DNA of 64,000 bases from a virus. Below are positions 4,659-27,686 of this stretch, piece by piece. The translations under genes and the position numbers were made by a program. The DNA is taken from the UHGV virus genome UHGV-1440165; one strand, written 5' to 3'. How positions within the stretch are numbered: position 1 is the first letter of the stretch; the number at the start of each line of letters is the position of its first letter. The notes under the pieces are model-generated. The model was not told the DNA's origin. It saw only the letters and a list, made by a program, of their open reading frames with translations, and did no database searches.

Positions 4659-5991
4659 GATGGTTGCCAAGAGCATTACTGTAACGGACTTTGTCAACAC
4701 GGACCACAAGGAGTTCTCGGTGGTCAACAGCATCCGTCAAATCCCTCAGCTGATTGACAGCCTCAAGCCAAGCCAGCGCAAGATCCTCTTCGCGGCTCTT
4801 GAGTACAACAAGGAGGAGATTGTTGACCGCCTTGGTATGTTCGCCGCCGCCCGCACGAACTACAAGTCTGGTGGCGAGAACATGAGCGGCACTATCGTGA
4901 ACATGGCTCAGGGCTTCCCAGGTACGAACAACATCCCGTACTTCGACCGCGATGGCCAGTTTGGTTCTATCATGGGGCGCGAAGCGTCGTCGGCTCGTTA
5001 TATTTCGGTTGCTGTATCTGATGTTATCCGCAAGATCTTCCGTAAGGAGGATGAGGGTATCTTGGAATACAACTACCTTGGTGAAGAGAAACTGGAACCG
5101 AAGTTCTTCCTGCCCATCCTTCCCATGTTCCTGGTGAATGGCATTAACGGTATCGGCTCCGGTTATGCCACCGACACCCCGTGCCATTGTGTTAAGTCCG
5201 TGCTGAACGCCCTGAGAGCACTTCTCCGTGGCGATAACCCGACGGACTTAAAACCGTACTGGAACGGCTACAAAGGAGAGACAGGCTATACTGAGGAAGG
5301 AAGAGCATACAGTCGCGGCATCTTCCGTCGCGTCAATGCCACGACCCTGCATATCACCGAAGTCCCAGTGGGCTGGTTCGCCAAGACCTATGAGACCAAG
5401 GTGTTGCTGCCTCTGTATAAGGCTGGTATCCTCACTGAGTACGCCAACGACACGACTGAAGACGGCTGGGACATCACCGTTGTGTTCAAGCGGGGCGAGC
5501 TGTCTAAGCTGGATGACGATCAGGTTGAGCAGATGTTCAAGTTGTACTCTGCTAACAAGCCTGTTTGGACAGCCTGGGATGAAGACGGTGTTATCCATCG
5601 CTATTCGGGTTGGCAGGATATGCTGCTGCCGTTCTTCAACTATCGCCTTTCCCGCTATGAAGACCGCCGCCAGTACATGCTGAAGGATATGGCCGACAGG
5701 ATCAGCAAGCTGGGTGACCGGGCAGTGTTCATTGAATGGGCGACGCGTGTTGATCTCCGCCAAAAGATTGATGTGCTGAAGTCTCTGTTCATGCAGGATT
5801 ACCCAGACTTCGGTGGTGACCTTGACGAGTTGTTCAAGATGCCGCTGTCATCAATCACCCTGGATGCTCGTGAGCGGCTGCTCAAGCAGATAGAGAACCT
5901 TGAAGCACAGCACAAGGAATTAAGTAAGAAAGAGGACATTGACCTCTACAACGAAGACCTTGATGACCTTGAAAAGGCTCTTGGTCTGTAA
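4651..5991 (+). CDS. 52: DNA topoisomerase II medium subunit (GyrA-like; T4 gp52)
   Basis: SVVNSIRQIPQLIDSLKPSQRKILFAALE and GyrA-like breakage-reunion region; ORF-track start 4651 is GTG, ATG at 4660 is the likelier start. Confidence 0.9.
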   Translation: MGKMVAKSITVTDFVNTDHKEFSVVNSIRQIPQLIDSLKPSQRKILFAALEYNKEEIVDRLGMFAAARTNYKSGGENMSGTIVNMAQGFPGTNNIPYFDRDGQFGSIMGREASSARYISVAVSDVIRKIFRKEDEGILEYNYLGEEKLEPKFFLPILPMFLVNGINGIGSGYATDTPCHCVKSVLNALRALLRGDNPTDLKPYWNGYKGETGYTEEGRAYSRGIFRRVNATTLHITEVPVGWFAKTYETKVLLPLYKAGILTEYANDTTEDGWDITVVFKRGELSKLDDDQVEQMFKLYSANKPVWTAWDEDGVIHRYSGWQDMLLPFFNYRLSRYEDRRQYMLKDMADRISKLGDRAVFIEWATRVDLRQKIDVLKSLFMQDYPDFGGDLDELFKMPLSSITLDARERLLKQIENLEAQHKELSKKEDIDLYNEDLDDLEKALGL

Positions 5992-6644: not shown

Positions 6645-7055
6645 ATGAAATTACTGGGTTATTTCCGCGAACTCCCAACAGGCTCTGAAGGCAAGTTGTT
6701 CTCACAGGTGAAGGGGAATGACATCGGTGATACGATGGTTCCCTTGTACACCCGTGACCTTCCTGCTGAAGGTGCCTGGGAGCGTCGTGTTGTCGCTGCT
6801 GCCAACAAATATGGTGATGTGATCGTCGTTGCCGACCGCCACCACAGCCGATTCATGAACAGTCAGCTCAAGATCCTGAAAGAGGCTGGCGTCATTAAAT
6901 CCACCCATACCCGCGAACAGGGCTTCATAGACAACCAGGGCAACTTCCTCACTCGTGAAGAGGCTTGCGTCGTAGCCCGTGAAGCCGGACAGATCAACCA
7001 GGTGCGCCTGAAGACAACCCCATTTCACGAACTCTTTTCCGAAGACCTCTATTGA
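6645..7055 (+). CDS. Hypothetical protein
   Basis: 136-aa ORF coupled to the upstream gene. Confidence 0.45.
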   Translation: MKLLGYFRELPTGSEGKLFSQVKGNDIGDTMVPLYTRDLPAEGAWERRVVAAANKYGDVIVVADRHHSRFMNSQLKILKEAGVIKSTHTREQGFIDNQGNFLTREEACVVAREAGQINQVRLKTTPFHELFSEDLY

Positions 7056-22166: not shown

Positions 22167-22424
22167 TCACCCTTGTGTGCGATGTGTTAGCAAGAGACTT
22201 CTGCGATCGATTTTCTTAGAAGACTCTACCATGTCAGCCAAGCGCTGTCGAAGGACTTCTTCGCCAGGGATTGGACCAGCTTTCAAGAATTCACGGGCTT
22301 CCGGGAACTCAGTTTCGGGCAGTGTATCCAGGATCTGCTTCAGGAAACAGATTGCCTGCATACGATGGCCATCGAACTGGAGGGCAAGATCCCTCCATTT
22401 CAGTTCAGTGCTGTCTTTGCTCAT
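22167..22424 (-). CDS. Hypothetical protein
   Basis: 85-aa ORF coupled (ATGA) to the ligase stop. Confidence 0.4.
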   Translation of the reverse strand: MSKDSTELKWRDLALQFDGHRMQAICFLKQILDTLPETEFPEAREFLKAGPIPGEEVLRQRLADMVESSKKIDRRSLLLTHRTQG

Positions 22425-23848
22425 GTTGCAGACTCCAACAGGAACGCGATGTTTTCGATGTATGCTTTCTGAATCGCGTAGACTTCATCCAGCGTGTTGG
22501 CCACTTTCTTGTCGATGCGGATTTCGGCAAGGCGTGGCAGGAACAGGGACTTCAGTGCATCATCTGTCTTATCCTGTACGCCATTAGAGAGCACTGCGGC
22601 GATCTTACCAATGTAGTCGCCCTGGTTCTCCCACATACGGAGTCTCAGCTCATCTGAGATCCCTGAGACGCCAACGACGAGCAAGCCATCGGAAGTCTTA
22701 CACAGCAGGGAGCCAAAGGTCTTGGCGTGTTTGCCTTTCTTGTCGGCATCATTGAAGCCCACGATTTCAAGGTCACACTCAACCTCCATCTTCAGCTTCA
22801 GACCTTCGGAGGAAGTCCCATCTTCCCACGGCATGTCAGCAGCCTTACAGATCGTGCCTTCTTCTTTACGAGCCAGCGCGTCTTTGAAGTGATCGACAGC
22901 TTCGGCAAACGAGTGAACAACACGGGTTTCCTGGACCTGAACCAGGCCGTCTTCTTCATCAAACAGCTGCTGGATGATATCGAAGCGGCGCTCATACGGA
23001 GTGTCCACGCGCTGGGCATTGAACCATTGTTCGTAAGGAACAACGTCCCACACCCGGTAGATCACCTGGTAACGATCTTCTAGAGGCTCACCCGTCTGGA
23101 TCACGCTGTTGAGTTTGCCGTTGCCAACAGCGCGAGGCAGGATTGTATTGGCCTTGAGGTCGATGACCAACAGCTCACCATGGAAGACGCTTTCACCAAT
23201 CCCTGCGTCGTAGATGATGTCCTTGAACACCAGTGACAGATTGTCGACCGAACCGCCTGCGATAAGCGAACCGGAGCGAGAGCGGATTTCAGGCGCTTTG
23301 TTGTAACGACAGATGATGTTGGCGAACATGCCGTCTGACTTCAGCTGGCTGTAGACGCCGCGCTTGAAGTCCATCTTCTTGAGCAGTTCAATCGTCATGT
23401 TGTCGTAACGATGATACGGAAGGATGTTGATCAGGCGACCTGTGCCCCCGGCGGCGTTAAATGCGGCGTTGATACCCTTCTCGGCAATACCCGCCTTGAT
23501 ATCACGGTCCAGGATCATCTGGATGAGTTCGTGATACTGTGGGTCCATCTTCAGGGCAACCGACGCCAGCAGGGAGTCGGCCTTTTGGCCACCGACAAGG
23601 CGCTGTGCCATCTGGTCGAGGACGTCATAGACTTCGCTGATGTCATCAGTCTTTTCACGCACGAGCATGCGAGGGTACGCGCTGAGTTTCAGTTCAGTGC
23701 GATAGAAAGACGTCATTGGGTCATAGACGTATTGCAGGAAGTCTGCCATGTCTGGACAATTCTTGAACGCTTCGGTCAACACAGCTTTCTTCGCATTGCT
23801 GCCTTTGGCTTCTCGAAGTCGGTGAACTGTTGCAAGGATAGGGATCAT
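22421..23848 (-). CDS. 30: ATP-dependent DNA ligase (T4 gp30-like)
   Basis: 475 aa; adenylation motif KSDG (YSQLKSDGMF) and nucleotidyltransferase/OB architecture. Confidence 0.85.
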   Translation of the reverse strand: MIPILATVHRLREAKGSNAKKAVLTEAFKNCPDMADFLQYVYDPMTSFYRTELKLSAYPRMLVREKTDDISEVYDVLDQMAQRLVGGQKADSLLASVALKMDPQYHELIQMILDRDIKAGIAEKGINAAFNAAGGTGRLINILPYHRYDNMTIELLKKMDFKRGVYSQLKSDGMFANIICRYNKAPEIRSRSGSLIAGGSVDNLSLVFKDIIYDAGIGESVFHGELLVIDLKANTILPRAVGNGKLNSVIQTGEPLEDRYQVIYRVWDVVPYEQWFNAQRVDTPYERRFDIIQQLFDEEDGLVQVQETRVVHSFAEAVDHFKDALARKEEGTICKAADMPWEDGTSSEGLKLKMEVECDLEIVGFNDADKKGKHAKTFGSLLCKTSDGLLVVGVSGISDELRLRMWENQGDYIGKIAAVLSNGVQDKTDDALKSLFLPRLAEIRIDKKVANTLDEVYAIQKAYIENIAFLLESAT

Positions 23849-23903
23849 GTAATGTCTCCAGGGTTATATGTGCTGCTATTATAACCCTGGGGACTTCAAT
23901 AGA

Positions 23904-24089
23904 TTATTGGCGGCGGGATCTTGCCTGGCTGACAATGATGTCGATGTTCGATTGTGGTTTCTTTTTCTTTTTCTTACGAGGCATCAGAGAGTGATATGCG
24001 ACGTAGAGGAACAAGAACATAATCAGACCACAACCGGTGAGTGCGCAACCGACCAGACCCGCAGTCAAAACCATTTCAAAAGTCGTCAT
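23904..24089 (-). CDS. Small single-pass membrane protein (tandem paralog 3)
   Basis: MTTFEMVLTAGLVGCALTGCG... TM helix plus poly-Lys tail; SD GAGGAAG; internal Met of the 127-aa ORF-track read-through. Confidence 0.4.
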   Translation of the reverse strand: MTTFEMVLTAGLVGCALTGCGLIMFLFLYVAYHSLMPRKKKKKKPQSNIDIIVSQARSRRQ

Positions 24090-24253
24090 TTGCGTCTTCC
24101 TCGAGCTTTGTTCACTATGTGGTCGATACTTTCCTTCCGAAACTTCGATTTCAGAACACCGATAGCCCCAGATGCGTGGAGTGCTATAGCAATCGCCACT
24201 AATATGGCCGGAGAAGCCCCGACCAGACCCGCCAAAAAGTGTTCCAGCGTCAT
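24086..24253 (-). CDS. Small single-pass membrane protein (tandem paralog 2)
   Basis: 55-aa ORF MTLEHFLAGLVGASPAILVAIAIAL...; near-identical RBS/start region to the 24089 start; ATGA coupling. Confidence 0.4.
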   Translation of the reverse strand: MTLEHFLAGLVGASPAILVAIAIALHASGAIGVLKSKFRKESIDHIVNKARGRRK

Positions 24254-24429
24254 CTGCGTCTCCTCCGAGCGTTCTCCACAATCGCATAGATGTCCCAGCC
24301 AGTACGGCGGTTTTTGCGCTTAATGCGCCACTCGTGGAACTTTGCGTCCAGGTTGTGGGAATTCAGCATTACCATCACGATACACACAGCTGTGGTGATC
24401 AATGAGAACAACTTCATATATTCCATCAT
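24250..24429 (-). CDS. Small single-pass membrane protein (tandem paralog 1)
   Basis: 59-aa ORF MMEYMKLFSLITTAVCIVMVM... with Arg-rich tail; SD GGAGGGG; overlaps both neighbours. Confidence 0.4.
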   Translation of the reverse strand: MMEYMKLFSLITTAVCIVMVMLNSHNLDAKFHEWRIKRKNRRTGWDIYAIVENARRRRR

Positions 24430-24989
24430 AACCCCTCCGCCCAGACAAACCCATACTTGTTCAGCAGATCCACGTTCTGTCCACGGGCGCGAGCCACGAT
24501 GGTTTCAATGGCTTCTTCTACCTCGAGTGGCGGGCACCCGGCGTCCACGTATGTGTTGAATAAGTGTTCTAATTCCTTTATGAACCCGGATTGTTCGTCT
24601 TTACCAAAGAACCAAACCCTGGCATCAGTTTCCTTGCCATCTTGGTCGATGGAGGCCATGTACATATACAAATGCGTTTTTCTTTGGGTGATACCCCTTA
24701 CTTCAGGCCAGTGCAATCCGTTCATGACATAATTGAAAAACTCTACGGGAGTGATGTCATCTGATACATAATAAAGCCGGAAGTCTGTGTCCGTTTCACC
24801 ATGCTTGGAAATCCTTCCGCTCAATAATTTAGAGATATTCACCCTTCGGCGAGTCCCATAAAATGTCTTGGATTTGAATTTACTGATGCCATCGGAAATG
24901 AAGCGACGCCCGAATACAATGACGGACATAACCCAAATAACACCCAAGATTATGGTGCTGAGGTCAACGTTGAACATAAGATCCCCCAA
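24426..24989 (-). CDS. Membrane-anchored protein, hypothetical
   Basis: N-terminal TM helix (LSTIILGVIWVMSVIVFG) then a soluble domain; 187 aa. Confidence 0.45.
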   Translation of the reverse strand: MGDLMFNVDLSTIILGVIWVMSVIVFGRRFISDGISKFKSKTFYGTRRRVNISKLLSGRISKHGETDTDFRLYYVSDDITPVEFFNYVMNGLHWPEVRGITQRKTHLYMYMASIDQDGKETDARVWFFGKDEQSGFIKELEHLFNTYVDAGCPPLEVEEAIETIVARARGQNVDLLNKYGFVWAEGL

Positions 24990-25019
24990 AATGATTGAGG
25001 GGCTTTCGCCCCTCTGGTG

Positions 25020-25631
25020 TTACTTGGCAGCCAGGCTGGCGAGGTAGTTGTCGGCTTCGATAGACGACGGGCTGTTGGCCGAGTAGCTCGAGTCGGCGAT
25101 TTCGGTTTCGCGCAGGATGGCATCGATATCGATAGTGGTCATGCCAGCAGCATAATCGATGTCTTCAGGGAGTACCAGACCCATATTGCTGGTTTCTTTC
25201 TGAACACGGACCAGCTCGAGGTTGGACTTCACTTCGTCCAGTTTGTCACCCAGCTGGATGATCGCTTCGTTCAGCTTGCCGCTGCTCGCTTCGATGTCCT
25301 TCACCTGAGCCAACAGGGCTTCGCCAATACGGCGGCGATGCAGAACGATCAGGGCTTCTGAACGTGCGGGCTTGCCACCACGGGCGATAGCGTCTTTCAG
25401 AATCTGCTCACGCTTGGTGGCCTCACCCAGGTTCTCTTCGGCGGTCTTCTTCAGCTTGACGCCGTTGCGGACGTTGGCGACACGGGCTTCTTCCAGGCGA
25501 CGGATTTCATCAGACAGCTTACGAGCAGCCAGGTTCAGGCGCTTTTCGGTGTCGGTCAGTTTATCCAGACCTGCAGTGACGTTGGCTTCAACAGTGGTGA
25601 AGATGCGTTTCAGTAAGTTTTTCAGTGACAT
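25020..25631 (-). CDS. PspA/IM30-like coiled-coil protein (candidate)
   Basis: IFTTVEANVTAGLDKLTDTEKRL resembles the PspA N-terminus ([26 protein letters not shown]); helical coiled-coil composition; about 200 aa. Confidence 0.45.
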   Translation of the reverse strand: MSLKNLLKRIFTTVEANVTAGLDKLTDTEKRLNLAARKLSDEIRRLEEARVANVRNGVKLKKTAEENLGEATKREQILKDAIARGGKPARSEALIVLHRRRIGEALLAQVKDIEASSGKLNEAIIQLGDKLDEVKSNLELVRVQKETSNMGLVLPEDIDYAAGMTTIDIDAILRETEIADSSYSANSPSSIEADNYLASLAAK

Positions 25632-25690
25632 TAGTGTAGTCCTCGTTTGTGTAAGTTCCCATGTATTATATGGGCGAATCGTTTATTGAA

Positions 25691-26038
25691 TTATTTGTTA
25701 TGAAATCCCAGAGTCTTGCGGACTTCTTCCCGGCATTTGGTGTCGAGCTGAACCGCCGCGCGATTAATCCGACGCCTGTAGTGTCGGGTAAGAGCTTTAT
25801 ACACAGCCTTGGATTCATGGTATGGCAGACAGTTGGAACAGAACCCGATATCGACCCTGTAGCCTGCGTTGCTGTTAACCGTGTAAGCATATACTCTGAC
25901 ACCGTTATAGATCACAGCGTCGATCCCGACCAGCCGCTCTCCGTTCCATTCAACGTCATCAGCGTCGATCGCATCAATCAGACAACGGATTTCGGCGCTC
26001 AGAGGCTTGCCCAACAACCAGTTGAAATACTTGCGCAT
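25691..26038 (-). CDS. Hypothetical protein
   Basis: 115-aa ORF. Confidence 0.4.
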   Translation of the reverse strand: MRKYFNWLLGKPLSAEIRCLIDAIDADDVEWNGERLVGIDAVIYNGVRVYAYTVNSNAGYRVDIGFCSNCLPYHESKAVYKALTRHYRRRINRAAVQLDTKCREEVRKTLGFHNK

Positions 26039-26039
26039 G

Positions 26040-26255
26040 TCACTTCCTCATCAGTGAAAGCAGGTTGACCGTAGCAGGGCGCGCATCAGGGGCGTAGAAG
26101 ACGTCCTGAGAGTGCCTCTTACAGCACGGGCAATCCTTCGTGGCGATTACACAGGGAGCCTTGTCCACGGCAAACCCGGCGGCTTCGGCTTCCTTCACGG
26201 TGGTGAATGGCAGGTAAGCACTTGTGCCCTGCCCTCCGCATGAACATTCCATCAA
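26040..26255 (-). CDS. Small Cys-rich protein, hypothetical
   Basis: 71 aa with CSCGG ... CPCCK. Confidence 0.35.
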   Translation of the reverse strand: MMECSCGGQGTSAYLPFTTVKEAEAAGFAVDKAPCVIATKDCPCCKRHSQDVFYAPDARPATVNLLSLMRK

Positions 26256-26364
26256 CGTTTCCTCTTAAAGGGGATGATCAGAGCTATGATGACAAGCATA
26301 GCTGTAATCACCCCGCATGCTATCAGACCAAAGGCGAACGACTTCAGAACAAACTCAATCAAAT

Positions 26365-27558
26365 TCATAACTTCCTCAATTTGGCTCGGGTGACCTGAGT
26401 TTGTTTAACACCGTTGTACTCGGTCAGTTCTTTGACACGACCTCTGATGATCATATCGCCCTGTAAGAACTCAGTATCCATATAAGAGGTCTTCCAGGTA
26501 ATTGTATTGCCTTCTGCTGTTTTGAAAGTAAACAGGTAGCTGTCACCGTATTCATTGGAGAAGAGGAAGGTGCGCTTGTCGAACCTGACTTGCACTTCCA
26601 GCATCTCCCCGACTTCGCCCACCCATTTGTTCTCTGTCTTGCGGTCGGCGCGAGGGCGATGGATGTAATCGTAATACTTCTTGGCACCCCAGCGGACTGT
26701 GTTATCGTCCTTGATCAGGTGGTAGCCCGGTTCGCACATGCGTTTCAGGCGAACGTTGAACTCGTTGGATTCAGACAGCGCTGCGATGAAGAGCTTCATG
26801 TGGTACATTTCTGACTCGGCATCTTCACGATATTCACGAGCCTTGATCAGAAAAATCTCGGCGTCAGAACCAGCCTTTGGTCTCTGGCCAGCACGGAGGT
26901 AGCCCAGAACCTCACCAAACAGATCTGATTTGATGTCCACGCCAGCCAGCAGCACCTGGAAGCATGCGCGCAGGTAACTGTGGGTGTCGGTGAAGCGTTC
27001 GTTCTGGACGCGATAGATCCCATCCGGGTCGTCTTCATCCGGCATGAAGAACTCGGTGATACCCAGATAGTAAGACATAATCGCGTCAAGAGACTTCTGA
27101 TGTGGTACGTAATGATGCATACAGGTACTGCCGATCAGCATCTGGGTGTGGCTCTGCTCATTCTCGATCACATATGTGTTCTTGCGACGGATGAGCAGAT
27201 TACAGTGCTGACACCAAGAGACGTTCTCTCCCTCGAAGCGACGGATGAAGTCGGCATTGATGTTGTCGGACAGTTTGTTCAGGATGACCTTTGGGTACTC
27301 GTGATTGAACTGCCCAATGATCTTCCAGCCACCATAAGAAACCGGGCGGTCGATACCTTCGCCTTCGAGGGTGACGGGTTTCCACCAATGAGTAAGGATC
27401 TCACCAGTGAAGTCACGGGTATGGGTTTTGAAGGGTTCACCATAAGTCACAGTCGGGAACGGGATACCCAATCTTTCGGCAGTGCGCTCGAGCTTCTTCA
27501 GTCGCTCAACCACCAGTTCTTCATTGTCGATCGGAATGTTGAATGTCTTGGCGTCCAT
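26365..27558 (-). CDS. Hypothetical protein with Cys/His cluster and OB-fold-like C-terminus
   Basis: 397 aa; WCQHCN...STCMHH cluster; C-terminal beta-rich segment ends RGRVKELTEYNGVKQTQVTRAKL. Confidence 0.5.
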   Translation of the reverse strand: MDAKTFNIPIDNEELVVERLKKLERTAERLGIPFPTVTYGEPFKTHTRDFTGEILTHWWKPVTLEGEGIDRPVSYGGWKIIGQFNHEYPKVILNKLSDNINADFIRRFEGENVSWCQHCNLLIRRKNTYVIENEQSHTQMLIGSTCMHHYVPHQKSLDAIMSYYLGITEFFMPDEDDPDGIYRVQNERFTDTHSYLRACFQVLLAGVDIKSDLFGEVLGYLRAGQRPKAGSDAEIFLIKAREYREDAESEMYHMKLFIAALSESNEFNVRLKRMCEPGYHLIKDDNTVRWGAKKYYDYIHRPRADRKTENKWVGEVGEMLEVQVRFDKRTFLFSNEYGDSYLFTFKTAEGNTITWKTSYMDTEFLQGDMIIRGRVKELTEYNGVKQTQVTRAKLRKL

Positions 27559-27647
27559 GTTTGAGCCTCATGATTTAGTAACAACTCTTCAATAGAGATT
27601 AAATAATAAGCGCTTTATTCTTGAAAGTAAAGTTATTGAAATTAAAA

Positions 27648-27668
27648 AGCCCAGTACTTGACTGGGCT
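27648..27668 (-). terminator. Rho-independent terminator (minus strand)
   Basis: agcccagt-acttg-actgggct hairpin; T run on the minus strand. Confidence 0.55.
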
Positions 27669-27686
27669 TCTTGGTGTTCAATCGGC

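Follow-up and report, generated by a model that had tools for sequence, protein, structure and literature searches.

A PspA/IM30-like gene and four membrane-protein genes of an Agtrevirus-like phage: a possible accessory membrane module with a counterpart in T4 e.6-e.3

Introduction

Does a PspA/IM30-like gene in a phage genome stand alone, or does it form one system with the membrane-protein genes that follow it? The question is raised by positions 23904 to 25631 of the virus genome stretch UHGV-1440165, where the gene of a 203-amino-acid (aa) PspA/IM30-like protein (25020..25631, minus strand; phage e.6 family, phrog_1203) is followed by four genes for membrane proteins. The full stretch of 64,000 nucleotides (nt) is called the window, and all positions refer to it unless another record is named. 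An original prediction, made from the letters alone, had seen here a phage module for membrane stress or membrane remodelling, possibly with a part in lysis timing or superinfection exclusion. We find that the 203-aa protein truly belongs with PspA, IM30 and Vipp1, in the ESCRT-III superfamily, although as a divergent relative; that the five genes are likely to be one functional unit; and that phage T4 carries a related unit, e.6-e.3.

In the enterobacterial psp operon, with PspA, PspB and PspC, and in the LiaH and LiaI pair of Bacillus, small inner-membrane proteins recruit or regulate a soluble PspA-type protein. PspA and Vipp1 form the bacterial arm of ESCRT-III membrane repair, and it was phage stress that first led to the discovery of the host version.

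The PspA homology of the phage protein is already known. A 99%-identical protein is named 'PspA/IM30 family protein' at NCBI, the homologue of Serratia phage Kevin is annotated 'PspA protein', and pspA-like genes of the gut 'Jug' phages are mentioned in passing in the literature. In the passages that mention PspA, Gendre et al. 2022 (PMC9409062) describe phrog_1203, represented by Gp_125 of the Kuttervirus Salmonella phage SeF3a, as a PspA homologue and propose an anti-abortive-infection role for it. Gp_125, an orthologue of the window protein, shares phrog_1203 with it; those passages do not speak of linked membrane proteins, a motif, a hairpin, a loss as a block or an equivalence with T4 e.6-e.3. 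Beyond this paper and the 'Jug' phage mention, the searchable literature on T4 e.3-e.6 or phage PspA gave nothing, and no report was found there of the five-gene unit, of a docking-type motif, of the hairpin design or of T4 e.6-e.3 as its equivalent. The joint loss of the five genes, the design of a hairpin and then a motif across 16 loci, and the membership of the PspA-like protein in the T4 e.6 family are apparently new.

Results

The 203-aa Protein Is a Divergent PspA/IM30/Vipp1 Relative

The 203-aa protein matches the Pfam family PF04012 at E=1.5e-11 and 44.7 bits, above the gathering cut-off of 33.9, with residues 5-149 aligned on profile positions 1-146 of 220. It matches phrog_1203 at E=2.6e-65 and has no transmembrane segment. 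When the single protein was compared by phmmer with the PDB sequences no match was found, and a family profile was required. This profile, made from 11 divergent phage homologues and searched against all PDB sequences, gave Vipp1 or PspA for all of its top eight matches, in register (family 6-144 to Vipp1 2-142) and at E ~1e-3; the best sequence matches of the phage family are cyanobacterial Vipp1. A profile of 53 sequences was also searched with HMMER, exhaustively, over 1.84 billion representative proteins. The 53 proteins recovered, representatives at 50% identity, are nearly all of phage type and of about 195-210 aa, and the only cellular-type protein reached, P0156 (E=9.6e-4), itself matches PspA_IM30 at 111.8 bits.

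The AlphaFold2 model (mean predicted local distance difference test, pLDDT, of 73) has an N-terminal helix at residues 3-22 and a helical hairpin of helices 28-83 and 90-149, with pLDDT 84-97 for the hairpin. Its top 12 Foldseek matches in the PDB are all Vipp1 or PspA with probability 1.00, and the crystal structure of E. coli PspA(1-144), 4whe, superposes at a template modelling (TM) score of 0.78 and a root-mean-square deviation of 3.7 Å. The N-terminal helix alpha0 has a hydrophobic moment (muH) of 0.47 and a net charge of +2; the moment ranges from 0.39 to 0.61 and the charge from +1 to +3 across the family, against moments of 0.49 for E. coli PspA and 0.61 for Vipp1. Its pattern LxRIxxxVxAN...D.EK aligns with Vipp1, and by these values alpha0 is predicted to be amphipathic and cationic to the same degree as its counterparts in PspA and Vipp1. 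The prediction that the protein at 25020-25631 is PspA-like is thus borne out by the Pfam score, the profile comparison with Vipp1 and PspA, and the agreement of the model with Foldseek, and we regard its PspA-type fold as very likely.

The protein shares with PspA/IM30/Vipp1 (PF04012) the amphipathic N-terminal helix, the alpha1-alpha2/3 hairpin, the length of about 200 aa and the cytoplasmic location, but its family is a small, isolated, phage-only clade with a C-terminal third of its own. Residues from about 150 to 203 are specific to the phage family and lie outside the PspA profile match; the short helices modelled there (155-164, 169-175 and 191-202) have low confidence, with pLDDT below 50-65. 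The extreme C-terminus (25020-25060) holds a family-conserved short amphipathic helix, (D/E)-x-x-x-Y-(L/I)-x-S-L-K, in which Y196, S199 and L200 are nearly invariant and which has no counterpart in the Pfam PspA profile. Self-assembly, partner binding or binding of a host factor are possible roles for it.

In the PADLOC-DB profiles, the PspA-like protein had only weak coiled-coil matches (JetC, E=0.005; LmuB, E=0.09) and the four membrane partners had none; neither gave a meaningful match to a defence or counter-defence family there. Among the PLSDB records, entries of 4.8-4.9 Mb labelled as E. coli plasmids (e.g. NZ_OL790696.1) carry the chromosomal pspA and look like misfiled chromosomes.

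The Five Genes Are Kept or Lost as One Block

Over the 5.2 kb that surround the cassette, the window shares 96.9% identity with Salmonella phage pSal-SNUABM-02 and about 90% with Shigella phage Ag3 and Salmonella phage SKML-39, all three in the genus Agtrevirus of the Ackermannviridae. On the 96.9% identity and a GC content of about 50%, the source phage is assigned to the Ackermannviridae as Agtrevirus-like; it is not T4.

Two close relatives, SW16-7 and CAU_YEP3, are missing the PspA-like gene and all four membrane genes. SW16-7 is without the window's 23943-25646 and CAU_YEP3 without 23926-26005. The ribosome-binding leader of the PspA-like gene remains in SW16-7, and the last ~30 nt of the 61-aa gene, the last of the four, survive in both phages; in CAU_YEP3 this remnant is fused to codon 11 of an upstream 115-aa gene. 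With their different breakpoints, these are two independent clean deletions of the same five-gene block.

Where the block is present, its members keep company. The 183-aa protein encoded just after the PspA-like gene is found in 86 phage records, all Ackermannviridae, and the PspA-like protein at an identity of at least 60% in about 85; the two genes are adjacent wherever the coordinates of both are visible. The wider region is matched in about 246 records, and since only roughly a third of them carry the cassette, it is accessory. The order of a PspA-like gene, a gene for a membrane-anchored protein of about 180-195 aa, one to three genes for small membrane proteins and the ligase gene recurs in Agtrevirus, Kuttervirus (Vi01) and Taipeivirus (May, IME250), and Nezavisimistyvirus (Bue1) has a similar arrangement with extra genes interposed. 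The PspA-like proteins of these four genera are 27-80% identical. For the diversity of loci we drew on annotated phage records, as single-protein scans gave close relatives only.

The neighbourhoods differ completely between lineages (ligase; nrdD/nrdG; e/nudE/tRNA; gp31/cd; nrdH) while the e.6-type gene and the genes that follow it, marked by the motif described below, stay together; the unit therefore keeps its internal design across contexts. The joint loss and the architecture conserved across genera agree with the original prediction of a single module, and we consider it likely that the five genes are one functional unit.

Four Membrane Proteins Share a Near-C-Terminal Motif

The first partner is an inner-membrane protein (24426..24977, minus strand; phrog_11433) with an N-terminal transmembrane segment and a cytoplasmic domain of about 155 aa. 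It had been taken as a 187-aa membrane-anchored protein from the open reading frame (ORF) 24426-24989, which begins at a TTG. The membrane anchor stands and the length probably does not: the ATG at 24977, giving 183 aa, is the more probable start because it has a GGGGGA Shine-Dalgarno sequence 4 nt upstream and agrees with the annotated start in pSal-SNUABM-02 and with the N-termini of the orthologues. Next come proteins of 59 aa (24250..24429), 55 aa (24086..24253) and 61 aa (23904..24089), all on the minus strand and each starting in an ATGA overlap. Every one has a single hydrophobic segment and a basic tail, just as three tiny single-pass proteins had been predicted. A 127-aa ORF at 23904-24287 was set aside as an in-frame upstream extension of the 61-aa gene, whose annotated start at 24089 overlaps the preceding stop.

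Each partner has one predicted transmembrane segment, and the annotators of Ag3 also gave one to each orthologue (Phobius, TMHMM). The lysines and arginines flanking the segment number 0 on the N-terminal side and 1-7 on the C-terminal side in every single-pass partner. By the positive-inside rule these counts predict an N-out/C-in topology, which would place the tails in the cytoplasm, the compartment of the PspA-like protein. None of the four proteins matched PspB (PF06667) or PspC (PF04024) in Pfam or NCBIfam at E<=1, and an assignment of the partners to the PspB, PspC or LiaI type was rejected for want of profile matches. The AlphaFold2 model of the 183-aa protein has a pLDDT of 59.7; Foldseek related it only to orthologues among viral structures and to nothing significant in the PDB (best E=0.013, TM ~0.24). 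A run of six lysine codons in the 61-aa gene, AAGAAAAAGAAAAAGAAA (23958-23975), is an A-rich tract of the slippage-prone kind; at this position the Ag3 orthologue reads KPKKHHPK.

The motif (D/E)-x-I-(I/V)-x-x-A-R, with basic residues after it, is present near the C-terminus of all four membrane proteins. It reads IVARAR in the 183-aa protein (24483..24500), IVENAR in the 59-aa protein (24265-24282), IVNKAR in the 55-aa protein (24101-24118) and IVSQAR in the 61-aa protein (23919-23936), all on the minus strand. Among the other putative proteins of the window, about 20,000 aa in all, there are 0 occurrences of the strict motif, with 0.6 expected. The counterparts in other genera carry it too, among them soluble proteins that Bue1 and Kevin encode after their PspA-like genes, and across the two phage families its forms are I[IV]xxAR (Ackermannviridae) and F[IV]xxCR (T4-like). 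In the alignment of the 183-aa family it is the most conserved, invariant block, E-x-I-V-A-R-A-R-G...KYGFxW; the model of the window protein places the motif on a short detached helix of a low-confidence flexible tail. In the e.5-like alignment of the T4 group, the motif Cys is the only invariant residue besides the initiator Met.

A generalised pattern, [FIV][IV]xx[ACS][RK], was fixed before six more T4-like loci from other genera were fetched. It was scored in the last 45 residues of the proteins, and positions +1 to +3 after the PspA-like gene were compared with other neighbours. In these held-out loci it was present in 7/18 downstream proteins and in 1/37 other neighbours (Fisher p = 0.001; binomial p = 8e-7), and over all 16 loci, from both phage families, in 27/45 and 4/82, respectively (p = 8e-12).

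The arginine codons of the motif come from both the CGN and the AGR families, all four alanine codons are used, the isoleucine and valine codons vary freely, and the distance from motif to stop ranges from 0 to 67 codons. As codon use and distance vary, the motif is conserved at the protein level; an origin from a Shine-Dalgarno sequence, or from another DNA signal for the next gene, is ruled out by the codons, by the 0-67 spacing and by the presence of the motif in the last gene, which has no coupled follower. Between the 183-aa protein of Ackermannviridae and the e.5 proteins of T4-like phages, both at position +1, hhalign gave a probability of 0.1%. With no homology detectable between their globular parts, the motif alone is common to the two.

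A Hairpin Separates the PspA-like Gene from Its Partners

The original prediction had all five genes tightly coupled. This holds for the membrane genes, with ATGA overlaps at their three junctions, and not for the PspA-like gene, which is followed by a spacer of 42 nt; translational coupling is confined to the four membrane-protein genes, with the PspA-like gene set apart. The spacer contains a GC-rich stem-loop, GAGGGGC-GAAA-GCCCCUC, with a GNRA loop (24997..25014, minus strand) and a short T-rich stretch next to it. A terminator-like scan called this hairpin, and folding of 24970-25030 (61 nt) gave a free energy (dG) of -21.8 kcal/mol with z = -2.8. It is probably an attenuator or a stabiliser of the mRNA 3'-end.

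Equivalent hairpins are found at 16/16 junctions between the e.6-type gene and the next gene and at 16/114 other junctions of the same loci; with the count restricted to spacers of 15 nt or more, the figures are 16/16 and 16/47 (p = 1.6e-6). At the 16 loci a short spacer after the e.6-like stop contains a GC-rich stem-loop, with loops mostly of the GNRA or UUCG type. Several of the stems are followed by a U-run, and the partner genes downstream typically overlap or are tightly spaced.

Phage T4 Has a Counterpart, e.6-e.3

The alignment of T4 e.6 (197 aa) with the window protein is full length, with 22% identity and a pairwise E=5e-12, and T4 e.6 matches phrog_1203 at E=8e-88; the orthologue of Ag3 is annotated 'e.6-like'. 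By tblastn the e.6/PspA-like family was found in 255 phage records, from Ackermannviridae and many genera of Straboviridae. In T4, e.6, e.5, e.4 and e.3 are phrog_1203, 2607, 2604 and 2330. As in the window, a stem-loop comes after the e.6 gene, ahead of overlapping genes with a related motif, and in an old T4 record e.6 is annotated with a promoter immediately upstream and a stem-loop immediately downstream. The tails read FVKECR in e.5, FVKESR in e.4 and FVIDCR in e.3, with F and C where the motif of Ackermannviridae has I and A. The first partner e.5 is soluble, whereas the 183-aa protein of the window is membrane-anchored, and e.4 and e.3 have two transmembrane segments each whereas the small partners of the window have one. 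The T4 unit appears to end at e.3, because the tail-anchored predicted membrane protein e.2 (6653-6961 in the T4 locus, L007) does not carry the motif.

In time-resolved T4 data, the transcripts of e.6, e.5, e.4 and e.3 are classed as early. Each of the four proteins was detected: e.4 and e.5 in the early phase, e.6 in the middle phase and e.3 late (PMC9697503, supplementary tables). The early transcripts argue against a purely late role at the lysis step. The module had been called 'not a described T4 function'. That remark set the phage beside T4, whereas it is one of the Ackermannviridae, but it was right in that T4 has the homologous e.6-e.3 genes and their function is undescribed.

The Surrounding Genes

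The genes of the cassette region are all on the minus strand, in a replication neighbourhood with a primase-helicase, a helicase loader and the DNA ligase. The ligase gene (22421-23848, minus strand) lies downstream, so that the cassette is upstream of the ligase as predicted. Just 5' of the ligase start codon, at 23858-23890 (minus strand), there is an 11-bp inverted repeat, CCAGGGTTATA...TATAACCCTGG, with TATAAT inside; the ligase Shine-Dalgarno sequence GGAG overlaps the end of its 3' arm. This repeat is kept in SW16-7 and CAU_YEP3 despite the adjoining deletion of the cassette, and it could regulate translation or transcription of the ligase.

On the other side, a promoter-like element (25655..25686, minus strand) that combines a TATAAT core with a small inverted repeat lies 23 nt before the start codon of the PspA-like gene. 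It occurs once in the window and has no canonical -35 box, and a sigma-70 scan called no promoter for the cassette. In pSal-SNUABM-02 and SW16-7 the same element precedes a 113-aa gene that the window lacks. This gene (342 bp) lies between the element and the PspA-like gene, or its leader remnant in SW16-7, in pSal-SNUABM-02, Ag3, Vi01, May and SW16-7; it is precisely missing at 25644-25647 of the window, where the element is joined straight to the PspA-like leader. The stretch from the ligase gene to a 397-aa gene is a hotspot of clean gene-sized insertions and deletions.

Further upstream, a 128-nt gap 5' of the 397-aa gene contains a terminator-like hairpin, GAAGCCCAGT...ACTGGGCTTTTT (minus strand, 27603-27669), and then TTTACT-17-TATTAT, the best promoter-like site of the region. 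The transcription unit that extends into the cassette probably has its boundary here, at 27603-27669. A 38-aa single-pass membrane protein with a C-terminal KRKR (26252-26368) overlaps the end of the 397-aa gene and is conserved in Ag3 and Vi01, and Kevin has a gene of equal size and position; as the motif is absent from it and the gene is retained in relatives without the cassette, it lies outside the cassette. A 71-aa Cys-rich protein (C-x-C ... CPCC; phrog_4789) at 26040-26255 has a weak PHROG match to ATP-dependent DNA ligases, at their N-terminus. In Erwinia phage Bue1 a similarly Cys-rich protein (4704-4922 in its locus, L006) is found after the cassette, beside the ligase gene, instead of before the cassette.

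Discussion

Comparison with Known Systems

Like the psp and Lia systems, the window has a gene for a soluble PspA-type protein beside genes for small inner-membrane proteins. The partners here, however, have no sequence relationship with PspB, PspC or LiaI and number four where those systems have one or two, and the cassette lacks a PspF-type regulator, unlike the psp operon. We know of no description of a shared short C-terminal motif for PspB, PspC or LiaI. In the archaeal CdvA-CdvB pair the C-terminal peptide of a membrane-binding adaptor recruits ESCRT-III; the likeness of this pair to the docking proposed below, in which a short terminal peptide of the partner would engage a lineage-specific C-terminal region of the ESCRT-III-type protein and so position the polymer at the membrane, is a conceptual analogy, with no relationship of sequence or domain.

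A Proposed Mechanism

Taken as a whole, the observations are best explained by an accessory, self-contained phage membrane module, a reading to which we give a probability of roughly 0.5. The motif would be a docking peptide. With it, the partners would recruit the PspA-like protein, or nucleate it, at the cytoplasmic face of the inner membrane, where the protein would probably be a polymer; the site bound by the peptide may be the hairpin of that protein or its family-specific C-terminal region. Direct binding of the motif to the PspA-like protein seems to us slightly less probable than its opposite. The RNA hairpin would leave the PspA-like scaffold in excess over its membrane anchors. The module would act early in infection and keep the inner membrane sealed and energised by stabilising or remodelling it, and candidate threats are membrane-depolarising abortive-infection (Abi) effectors, a superinfecting phage and the phage's own membrane-active proteins.

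The weakest step is the physiological role. Membrane protection or an anti-Abi function is taken from the known role of cellular PspA and Vipp1 together with the suggestion of Gendre et al., and it remains doubtful. With somewhat more confidence, though still tentatively, we suggest that T4-like and ViI-like phages may share a so far unrecognised ESCRT-III-type system for early membrane remodelling or protection, in which a PspA-like polymer (e.6 in T4) would be served by adaptors (e.5, e.4 and e.3 in T4; four here) with a common C-terminal docking peptide.

Several points weigh against a membrane module of this kind. The homology to cellular PspA is remote: the E-values of the family profile are only ~1e-3 in the PDB, the protein scores 14.3 bits with both NCBIfam PspA (TIGR02977, cut-off 242.95) and NCBIfam LiaH (NF045984, cut-off 380), and hhalign against E. 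coli PspA alone gave a probability of 11%; on these scores, neither host PspA nor LiaH is its orthologue. Most family members are below the PF04012 threshold, with 20.4 bits for GAP161 and no match for T4 e.6, Kevin, Bue1 and Aeromonas phage 65, and the alpha4/alpha5 region, which builds the polymer in PspA, has no Pfam match and a low-confidence model. The cassette is dispensable, being absent from about two thirds of the related Ackermannviridae records. The motif is degenerate in some phages (FINYCI in Ceceduovirus AS-zj, YIMQCR in Bragavirus SJ_PmiM), and its regular expression was partly generalised post hoc, though the held-out test was passed. The motif could bind a host factor or another phage protein instead, and interaction, polymerisation, membrane binding and phenotype of the members all remain predicted.

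Other Explanations

The roles might be reversed, with the membrane proteins as effectors in superinfection exclusion, host takeover or holin-like control of lysis timing, and the PspA-like protein as their regulator, chaperone or antidote, which would hold them by the shared tail motif or repair their leak. Many phage membrane effectors are, like these partners, small proteins of one or two passes with basic tails, the variation from one to three small genes between genera is what fast-evolving effectors would give, and the co-loss, the motif and the hairpin fit equally well. The partners, however, have no similarity to T4 Imm, Sp, RI or RIII, to holin families or to the PHROGs of lysis and exclusion, the motif is also carried by soluble partners (T4 e.5, GAP161_245, p396 and p395 of Aeromonas phage 65), and the early expression in T4 speaks against a role at lysis. 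We hold this explanation to be unlikely. More improbable still is a decoy that acts on the host Psp response, the PspA-like protein binding PspF, so blocking induction, or PspB/PspC, and the partners serving as PspB/C-like sensors or triggers. In E. coli it is the hairpin region of PspA that binds PspF, the hosts of the records are Enterobacterales and Aeromonas, which to our knowledge encode PspF-ABC, and the small partners have the PspB-like layout of an N-terminal transmembrane segment and a cytoplasmic tail. The protein, however, is very far from enterobacterial PspA (14 bits against a cut-off of 243 for TIGR02977; 11% by hhalign); since its best sequence matches are cyanobacterial Vipp1, it is not a recent mimic derived from the host, and the partners lack any PspB or PspC match in Pfam or NCBIfam.

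It can also be asked whether the resemblance to PspA is that of any coiled coil, kept beside independent membrane morons by inherited synteny while the protein itself serves some unrelated purpose, such as replication or recombination near the ligase gene. Long helical hairpins do draw spurious matches, as the chemoreceptors and BAR domains at lower Foldseek ranks and the JetC and LmuB matches illustrate, and the cassette is located among replication genes. But the top matches of three methods are all PspA or Vipp1, in register from residue 1 and with the N-terminal helix included, the family reaches a true PspA (P0156) reciprocally, the internal design is kept in unrelated neighbourhoods and the genes are deleted as a block; hardly any weight is left for this explanation.

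Significance

T4 offers the place to test the reading as a self-contained membrane module, since with e.6-e.3 as an early expressed unit the idea is testable in the best-developed phage genetic system, and the shared motif defines precise point mutations. Some phages considered for therapy naturally carry the cassette and others lack it, and it may affect host range or robustness. If the reading is right, it would mean that large lytic phages with their own PspA and adaptors actively manage the membrane on which they depend, that they could counter defence systems that kill the cell by depolarisation, and that adaptor-driven ESCRT-III recruitment would have a viral counterpart.

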